Shown: positions 1-4,079 of the stretch, piece after piece | Position numbering within the stretch: the stretch's first letter is position 1 | Layout: each line of letters opens with the position of its first letter | Virus record (IMG/VR): IMGVR_UViG_2671180680_000011 | Reading direction: 5' to 3' (one strand) | DNA: 4,079 nucleotides | Source of the DNA: a virus | Lineage: Duplodnaviria; Heunggongvirae; Uroviricota; Caudoviricetes | Translations under genes and position numbers: made by a program | Notes under the pieces: generated by a model | Told to the model about the DNA's origin: nothing | Seen by the model: the letters and a program-made list of their open reading frames with translations, nothing else | The model's database searches: none

Positions 1-47
1 AATATCTCCCCGGCAGCCTTCAGGGAAAAATATCATCAGATGGCTGC

Positions 48-401
48 TTAAAAAAAGAACAAATGGTAGTGTCCGCTATTGCCAGTACACCTCAATTGCT
101 CTGCGGCTTCGCTCAGAGCTGGCGTATGTTCCCGGCCTACTGATTCACACAGGTAATCAACGAAACCGGACACCAGTTTTCGTTCGCGAGGCGTGATCGC
201 CCCACCGACCGGAGTCCAGTAATCGAAACCCAGTTGCAGGAGTTTGAAAAAACGCTTGTGGAATGCGTAGTTACACACACGCTTAAAGTCTGCGTGTATC
301 CACTCACCTATTTTGATTTGATGCAGAAAATCGCAACTCTCCGGCGTCGCCGGGAGAAGTAATCCGGAAGAGGTTTGTTTGACCAGTTGTATATGTGCCA
401 T
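48..401 (-). CDS. Hypothetical protein, 117 aa from the ATG at 401 (alternative 131-aa form from a TTG at 443); second gene of a two-gene operon
   Basis: Long ORF on the minus strand. The internal ATG at 401 is preceded by GGAGA about 6-7 nt upstream; the ORF-track start at 443 is a TTG overlapping the upstream stop. No family recognised (sequence contains FDYWTPVGG and a Cys/His-rich C-terminus). Confidence 0.5.
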   Translation of the reverse strand: MAHIQLVKQTSSGLLLPATPESCDFLHQIKIGEWIHADFKRVCNYAFHKRFFKLLQLGFDYWTPVGGAITPRERKLVSGFVDYLCESVGREHTPALSEAAEQLRCTGNSGHYHLFFF

Positions 402-439
402 CGGCTTTCTCCGGTGGCACGGTGTTACACAGCAGGAGT

Positions 440-727
440 TCAATCCTGCTCAAGATTGTAGATGAGTTTATTCTTCAGCAAAAGCAGAAAACCAGCCTTA
501 AAACCAATCTCTTTCAAAACCCGTAATGATGTGACAAATTCGTCCTCACGCAAAATAAAACCGTCCGTCAGAAGTCCATTACAAAAATAAAATAACACAG
601 CACCGCTCTTCCTTTGTTGAGATTGCAAACATCTAATGCGGCAATGGCTGACAATCGCTCCATTCTCAACGCGCACAGCATAGAGGCCATTTTCACTAAA
701 AATTTCACGCAATTCTTCGATTTTCAT
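440..727 (-). CDS. Hypothetical protein, 95 aa; first gene of a two-gene operon
   Basis: ATG at 727 preceded by AAGGA about 8 nt upstream; stop TGA at 440-442; candidate promoter upstream at 809-836. No family recognised. Confidence 0.5.
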   Translation of the reverse strand: MKIEELREIFSENGLYAVRVENGAIVSHCRIRCLQSQQRKSGAVLFYFCNGLLTDGFILREDEFVTSLRVLKEIGFKAGFLLLLKNKLIYNLEQD

Positions 728-808
728 CTTCAGAATCCTTCCAGATAAATAGCTCTCCCCTGTTCGGGGTCCATCCCTCTTCTCCCTGCGCGCTACTTAA
801 GTGAGTCG

Positions 809-836
809 ATTCTATCTGCGAAGGTGCGCGAATCAA
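809..836 (-). promoter_or_regulatory. Putative sigma70 promoter for the 95-aa/117-aa operon (TTGATT, 16-nt spacer, TAGAAT)
   Basis: Read on the minus strand: -35 TTGATT (plus 831-836) and -10 TAGAAT (plus 809-814), placing the start about 75 nt upstream of the ATG at 727 and just downstream of the hok terminator. Confidence 0.3.
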
Positions 837-2830: not shown

Positions 2831-2866
2831 TGAAGTGGCACACTGAATTTGGCCACCTGAACAGAG
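2831..2866. repeat. Left terminal inverted repeat (IRL) of the IS911-like element
   Basis: TGAAGTGGCACACTGAATTTGGCCACCTGAACAGAG; first 8 nt and the GGCCACC core match the reverse complement of the right end. Confidence 0.8.
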
Positions 2867-2902
2867 GTGATATGCTCACCTCAGAACAACACAGGTGCTC
2901 CA

Positions 2903-4079
<1,177 letters not shown>

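Follow-up and report, generated by a model that had tools for sequence, protein, structure and literature searches.

A stretch of DNA of 4,079 nucleotides from a Caudoviricetes virus (IMG/VR record IMGVR_UViG_2671180680_000011; the whole stretch is called the window below) carries two small reading frames of 95 and 117 aa downstream of a hok gene, which raises the question of what they encode and whether they belong together. The original prediction saw in them a compact two-gene operon of unrecognised proteins, of a kind typical of addiction, defence or prophage accessory modules. Both reading frames lie on the minus strand as described (440–727, 95 aa; 48–401, 117 aa), and as prophage genes of one orientation they do stand close together, with hok upstream of them and insertion sequences alongside. 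Neither, however, is unrecognised: the first is Rem (PF27490), from a characterised antirepressor family, and the second is DUF1367/IrsA. We consider it highly probable that positions 48–836 belong to the early-right (“nin-like”) region of a decayed lambdoid prophage of the Rac/Qin type, holding a rem antirepressor gene and a remnant of irsA truncated by IS600, and form no autonomous module.

Layout of the Window and Its Prophage

The window corresponds to a piece of a lambdoid prophage resembling Rac/Qin, probably from Shigella sonnei, with IS600 and IS911 at its borders. According to the ORF listing, all genes of positions 1–2860 are on the minus strand. The features are as follows:

1–94: terminal part of IS600; the element end TGAGGTGTAC..., read on the minus strand, sits at position 94
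48–401, minus: chimeric ORF of 117 aa, the 5' half of DUF1367/irsA plus IS600 read-out
402–439, minus: intergenic spacer of 38 nt with the GGAG ribosome-binding site of the DUF1367 gene
440–727, minus: rem-family gene, 95 aa, ATG start, putative antirepressor of a DicA-type prophage repressor
728–802, minus: conserved rem leader of about 75 nt with a short upstream ORF (730–774) and a predicted hairpin
809–836, minus (read 836–809): promoter-like site for rem, TTGATT, 16 nt, TAGAAT
857–901, minus: intrinsic terminator that closes the hok mRNA on its 3' side (GC-rich stem, then a U run)
977–1189, minus: hok/mok toxin gene (Pfam HOK_GEF)
1127–1302: sok antisense region (Rfam sok RF01794, 117 bits)
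977–1302: hok/mok plus sok locus overall, the constant upstream neighbour of rem
1360–2046, minus: QueH, epoxyqueuosine reductase (Pfam, E = 2e-65)
2194–2607, minus: zinc-ribbon protein of 137 aa (phrog_1621)
2608–2856, minus: C-terminal remnant of a DUF977 (Ren-like) gene
about 2840–4079: IS911, the right part of the window

At window positions 1–94, 100 nt match thousands of places annotated as “IS3-like element IS600 family transposase” at 98–100% identity. At the other border IS911 cuts the DUF977 gene at residue 65, and the resulting 82-aa ORF begins within IS911. The DUF977 gene is intact in other contigs with the same IS600 fusion, so the IS911 insertion of the window is specific to its strain. 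As IS911 cuts the prophage at about position 2839, the prophage repressor lies outside the window.

The gene order of the missing parts can be read from intact relatives. Their first part runs from a dicA-like repressor gene and a Cro-like gene through ydaT, replication genes, DUF977 and the zinc-ribbon gene to queH, and the rest comprises hok, rem, DUF1367, a ybcO-like nuclease gene, a DUF1133 Q-like antiterminator gene, tRNAs and lysis genes. The queH gene stands downstream of the replication genes and ahead of hok, and resembles a moron for tRNA modification. The 137-aa protein has a zinc-ribbon-like CxxC...CxxC region, and its RefSeq version is 118 aa long.

The 95-aa Gene Is rem

The 95-aa protein belongs to the Pfam family Rem (PF27490), to which P0001, a protein of identical sequence, has a precomputed assignment. 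Over residues 1–80 it shows 68% identity to Rem of E. coli K-12, with which it shares phrog_340, and its homologues are named rem in phage records. A Shine–Dalgarno-like GGAAGGA precedes its ATG at 727, and GGAG stands 8 nt before the ATG of the second reading frame at 401, as had been predicted for both genes. The dN/dS of rem is about 0.2 against three homologues, pointing to purifying selection, and that of the DUF1367 part of the second reading frame is 0.05–0.08; both sequences are thus real coding sequences.

A deep search of 1.8 billion proteins for the Rem family returned 57 representative clusters (50% identity), and the family is small and enterobacterial. Distant members retain only a C-terminal GFxLRxDEFVTSL core. 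AlphaFold modelled Rem poorly (pLDDT 61), and no solved fold was matched; sequence searches against solved structures returned nothing significant for Rem or DUF1367, and NCBIfam gave no significant match for either protein (a single sub-threshold one for the 117-aa ORF, E = 0.07, 12.7 bits against a cut-off of 45). Residues 81–95 of Rem (window 440–487) form the tail LLLLKNKLIYNLEQD; the common form, of 86 aa, has SAFEDE in its place. The KNKLIYNL tail also occurs in the family members P0044, P0045 and P0102, as would be expected had the usual stop codon been lost.

The identities of both reading frames are already known, and the discovery value is small. GenBank MN652886 (“Escherichia phage Rac”, E. 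coli 442/2) has the order dicA, dicC, ydaT, ydaU, ydaV, ..., mok/hok, rem, irsA, ybcO, q, and it names rem “prophage antirepressor” and the next gene irsA, so that the layout of the window has been annotated before. The two Rem proteins are 64% identical. MN652886 is intact, whereas the window has lost part of irsA to IS600 and part of the DUF977 gene to IS911. For annotation the assignment is of some use: two RefSeq E. coli records with the 95-aa form were examined, and both call it “hypothetical protein”.

Rem as a Candidate Antirepressor of a DicA-Type Repressor

In E. coli K-12, Rem relieves repression by DicA, the short, non-cleavable repressor of the Qin prophage (Ragunathan et al., 2023, J Bacteriol, PMC10448788). 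Ectopic K-12 Rem raised the activity of the DicA-repressed dicBp promoter 165-fold and caused dicBF-dependent filamentation (PMC10448788). The protein had been discovered via chained PSI-BLAST begun from Gifsy antirepressors, and according to Ragunathan et al. its inducing signal is unknown (PMC10448788).

The window resembles the Qin locus of K-12 (rem, b1561) in the PF27490 family, in the position of the gene immediately downstream of hok (hokD in K-12) and in the conserved –10 element and leader. A 135-aa DicA-type repressor with a Cro-like partner also belongs to the window’s prophage type, as seen in relatives. The two loci differ in the length of Rem (95 aa in the window, 83 aa in K-12), with a different C-terminal tail (residues 81–95) and a 4-residue insertion, and in the gene downstream of rem, which is DUF1367/irsA here and ydfU (DUF968) in Qin. 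The cognate repressor of the window’s prophage type is only 62% identical to DicA, and its operator sequence is different.

By analogy with these systems, Rem most likely binds the short, non-cleavable DicA-type repressor of its prophage; it would take the repressor off its operators and so turn on the repressed prophage promoters. This activity is assigned here by homology, from what has been shown for K-12 Rem with DicA and for GfoA and GftA, the antirepressors of Gifsy prophages; GfoA is seen in an A2B2 complex with its repressor GfoR. A candidate target is at hand in the relatives of the window. The 135-aa HTH repressor, of the WP_000787424 type and 62% identical to DicA, and its Cro-like partner lie 4–6 kb upstream in the intact E. 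coli FDAARGOS_944 (L001) and in the S. sonnei contig L019. The two relatives have the same DicA-like repressor (100% identity), and in L019 it stands about 6 kb upstream of rem. DicA/DicC-like genes were present in every rem locus with enough flanking sequence. The operator of the presumed target repressor reads TCCTTAG-N6-CTAAGGA, against TTGTTAG-N6-CTAACAA for DicA.

The Constant Unit Is hok–rem

The genes hok and rem were contiguous in 2783 of the 5426 complete E. coli genomes, rem and DUF1367 in 23 of them. In all full-length rem loci examined hok lay directly upstream. About eleven loci had ydfU (DUF968) after rem and ten had DUF1367; among these ten are several near-identical Shigella copies of the window’s prophage. 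DUF1367 was also found without rem in the nin-like region of phages of Vibrio, Pseudomonas, Klebsiella, Pectobacterium and Mannheimia. The commonness of hok–rem against the rarer rem–DUF1367 arrangement identifies hok–rem as the constant unit and the rem–DUF1367 junction as one mosaic variant. Homologues that occur only singly had been named beforehand as grounds for rejecting the two-gene reading; given that DUF1367 occurs without rem in other phages and that rem stands mostly before ydfU, this is largely the case.

The contig L011 (JAGZPX010000007.1, 22.9 kb), labelled “MAG: Veillonella parvula”, carries an E. coli Qin-like prophage segment and is probably a binning contaminant; its genes dicA, queH, hok, rem, ydfU and quuQ encode proteins at 98–99% identity to those of K-12. 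In a Salmonella Gifsy-like prophage (L024, 3141–3317) a degraded hok-like ORF (...LIVLIIICITVTVTAPVTRRD...) lies just upstream of an antirepressor-like ORF and irsA, and the linkage of hok to this region therefore extends past Escherichia.

The near-constant adjacency, in every full-length locus and in half of the genomes counted, could mean that rem works with hok, for instance as a regulator of the Hok protein or as its antidote. We hold this to be improbable. The hok locus has a complete RNA control of its own in mok and sok, and its own terminator ahead of rem; plasmid and other chromosomal hok loci (found as partial matches) have no rem. Short relatives of Rem are linked to dinI and LexA boxes instead of hok, and the measured activity of Rem is on DicA.

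The 117-aa Reading Frame Is irsA Truncated by IS600

The second gene had been taken for an intact one, which it is not. Its codons 1–102 (window 96–401) are the first 102 codons of the 199-aa DUF1367/irsA gene, and the remaining 15 codons (103–117) with the stop (48–95) are supplied by IS600. Pfam DUF1367 (PF07105, E = 1e-46) aligned residues 1–103 with profile positions 1–102 of 198, hence about half of the family’s length, and homology to the intact 199-aa gene stops at window position 95. The nearest intact relative, E. coli FDAARGOS_944, is 99.9% identical from position 95 on; the 117-aa product equals its DUF1367 protein up to residue 102 except for R43C and then diverges. IS600 inserted after codon 102 of DUF1367/irsA; in Gifsy-type prophages and some of the Rac type, this is the gene next after the one for the antirepressor. 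The start of the gene had been left open between an ATG, which gives a gap of 38 nt to rem (402–439), and a TTG. The gap holds: the TTG at 443 would give 131 aa, but all homologues start at the ATG at 401 (MAHIQL/MAHLQL).

The identical fusion ORF was found in 521 blocks of the assembly collection. Its attribution to S. sonnei follows the source names of the close relatives P0142 and P0172, the latter an S. sonnei “irsA domain protein” with the same IS-derived C-terminus. Beyond IS600, an integrase fragment and then the chromosomal modABC/gal region followed in three of the four contigs examined, which indicates that the distal prophage has been lost in those three and not merely displaced. 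The gene of the 117-aa ORF is a remnant and very probably without function.

In S. flexneri-type loci (L008/L009, 10327–12592) an IS3-family element interrupts the same DUF1367 gene, and the 3' part of DUF1367, ybcO and the start of DUF1133 are kept ahead of IS911; here insertion sequences have eroded the same prophage independently or step by step. The DUF1367 protein of “Actinobacillus phage vB_Apl-pPE4” (PP818812.1; H49/H90) is 96.5% identical to the E. coli one. Such closeness would not be expected of a Pasteurellaceae phage and points to an origin in an E. coli prophage or to a wrong label on the record.

The DUF1367 fragment might instead be the important part of the locus, as a NinB/Orf-like recombination mediator whose N-terminal half is still active. 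It matches phrog_319, labelled “NinB/Orf homologous recombination mediator”, and in many phages DUF1367 holds the position of NinB, with the replication genes ahead of it and the nucleases and Q behind. Lambda NinB and the NinB-like YbcN, however, belong to another family (phrog_72), the hhalign comparison of DUF1367 with NinB gave E = 0.64, and DUF1367 matches no solved structures in the PDB, its AlphaFold model (pLDDT 44) being unusable. Half of the protein is missing here, and induction of Gifsy prophages is unaffected by non-polar irsA deletions (PMC3121763). We therefore judge such a role very improbable and keep to the reading of the ORF as a remnant beside rem. YbcN was also considered as a DUF1367 protein in its own right and rejected on its NinB-like assignment.

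An addiction (toxin–antitoxin) or anti-phage defence cassette, for which speak the small, adjacent and co-oriented genes beside a type I toxin–antitoxin locus and insertion sequences and the name “Antitoxin Rem” in one phage record, has next to no probability left: PADLOC matched neither protein nor full-length DUF1367, the second gene is a remnant cut by IS600, intact relatives continue in the same direction of transcription through ybcO and the DUF1133 Q-like antiterminator gene instead of ending as a compact pair, the published Rem phenotypes (filamentation) are attributed to dicBF derepression and not to toxin neutralisation, and the co-occurrence counts, with each gene mostly found without the other, largely refute it.

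Comparison With the Gifsy Operon

In the Gifsy prophages a LexA-regulated operon consists of dinI, an antirepressor gene (gfoA, gftA or gfhA in Gifsy-1, -2 and -3) and irsA, with a terminator ahead of it and the replication genes upstream (Lemire, Figueroa-Bossi and Bossi, 2011, PLoS Genet, PMC3121763). In the window, too, irsA (DUF1367) comes straight after a small antirepressor gene, which follows a terminator and has the replication genes upstream. The targets are of one kind as well: short repressors that are not cleaved on induction, a group that includes DicA. As in Gifsy, irsA directly follows the antirepressor gene, yet in the window it is truncated by IS600. The Gifsy operon has a LexA box and begins with dinI, whereas the rem gene of the window has no LexA box and is preceded, in the place of dinI, by hok/sok and its terminator.

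The Gifsy-type layout was borne out in three loci. In phage mEp237 (L026, 1831–3100) a perfect LexA box is followed by dinI, an 82-aa ORF with a GTG start and DUF1367; in Citrobacter (L017, 9560–10141) a perfect LexA box and dinI precede a short, 60-aa member of the Rem family; and in Pluralibacter (L018, 9919–10581) a perfect LexA box precedes a short family member and DUF1367. The fetched loci, 407 kb in all, contained only 5 perfect LexA boxes, of which 3 were at the promoters just named. The short members behind LexA boxes were detected by HMM at E = 1e-15 to 1e-26. An hhalign comparison of the Rem profile with the ORFs between dinI and irsA of mEp237 and a Salmonella prophage was co-linear over 61 columns and not significant, at E = 0.05 and a probability of 1%. 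From the layouts of the three loci, the short form of Rem is linked to LexA boxes and the long form to hok.

Promoter, Leader and Control of rem

A promoter had been predicted ahead of rem. The hexamers are present at 836–809, forming a sigma-70-like site with 9 of 12 positions matched; as a count, such matches do not exceed chance (2 found, 1.5 expected in shuffles). The –10 element ATAGAAT was invariant in four aligned upstream sequences, TAGAAT was kept in 7 of 9 distinct sequences, and a TTGAnn –35 element at 16–18 nt recurred in three otherwise unrelated ones. The site lies just past the hok terminator, whose region (840–980) folds on the minus strand at –54 kcal/mol (z = –3.3) and is conserved in relatives. 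The rem gene appears to have a promoter of its own at 836–809, followed by a conserved leader of 75 nt.

The leader (about 75 nt) was nearly invariant among nine distinct upstream sequences, and its flanks were less conserved. It is also nearly invariant (CTTAAGTAGCGCGCAGGGAGAAGAGGGATGG...) across heteroimmune prophages in the alignments A1 and A6, in contrast to the –35 region farther upstream. RNAalifold predicted a helix, pairing 34–40 with 62–68 of alignment A6, with one compensatory change from A-U to U-A; as the sequences amount in effect to two haplotypes, the evidence for this helix is weak. A short upstream ORF (730–774) stops 2 nt before the ATG of rem; it has 14 codons in the window, 3 in K-12 and 8 in L002, and is therefore unconserved as a peptide.

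A LexA box (CTGT-N8-ACAG, one mismatch allowed) was absent from the window and from up to 400 nt upstream of the hok-linked rem genes; L017, L018 and L026, with their perfect boxes, served as positive controls. The leader contained neither the DicA operator of K-12 nor that of the heteroimmune relative, and the search upstream of rem for the operator of the prophage repressor found no shared 9-mers besides an A-rich run. Having no LexA box, the gene differs from Gifsy-type operons, and its trigger is not in any obvious way the SOS response.

Speculatively, the long, hok-linked rem of Escherichia and Shigella may have swapped the region of LexA box and dinI of an ancestral Gifsy-type antirepressor operon for a sigma-70 promoter and a structured leader (CTTAAGTAGCGCGCAGGGA...); this element would act as a sensor of a non-SOS signal for inducing DicA-type prophages, and it might be coupled to the adjacent hok/sok locus. 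We regard this as possible and rather unlikely.

Implications for Escherichia and Shigella Prophages

A LexA-free antirepressor of the Rem type adjoins hok in about half of the E. coli genomes. In S. sonnei, both the antirepressor and its presumed repressor persist in a prophage that has been heavily eroded by insertion sequences. With both surviving, Rem could still control the remaining prophage genes; alternatively, it could act in trans on other prophages, like the Gifsy antirepressors.
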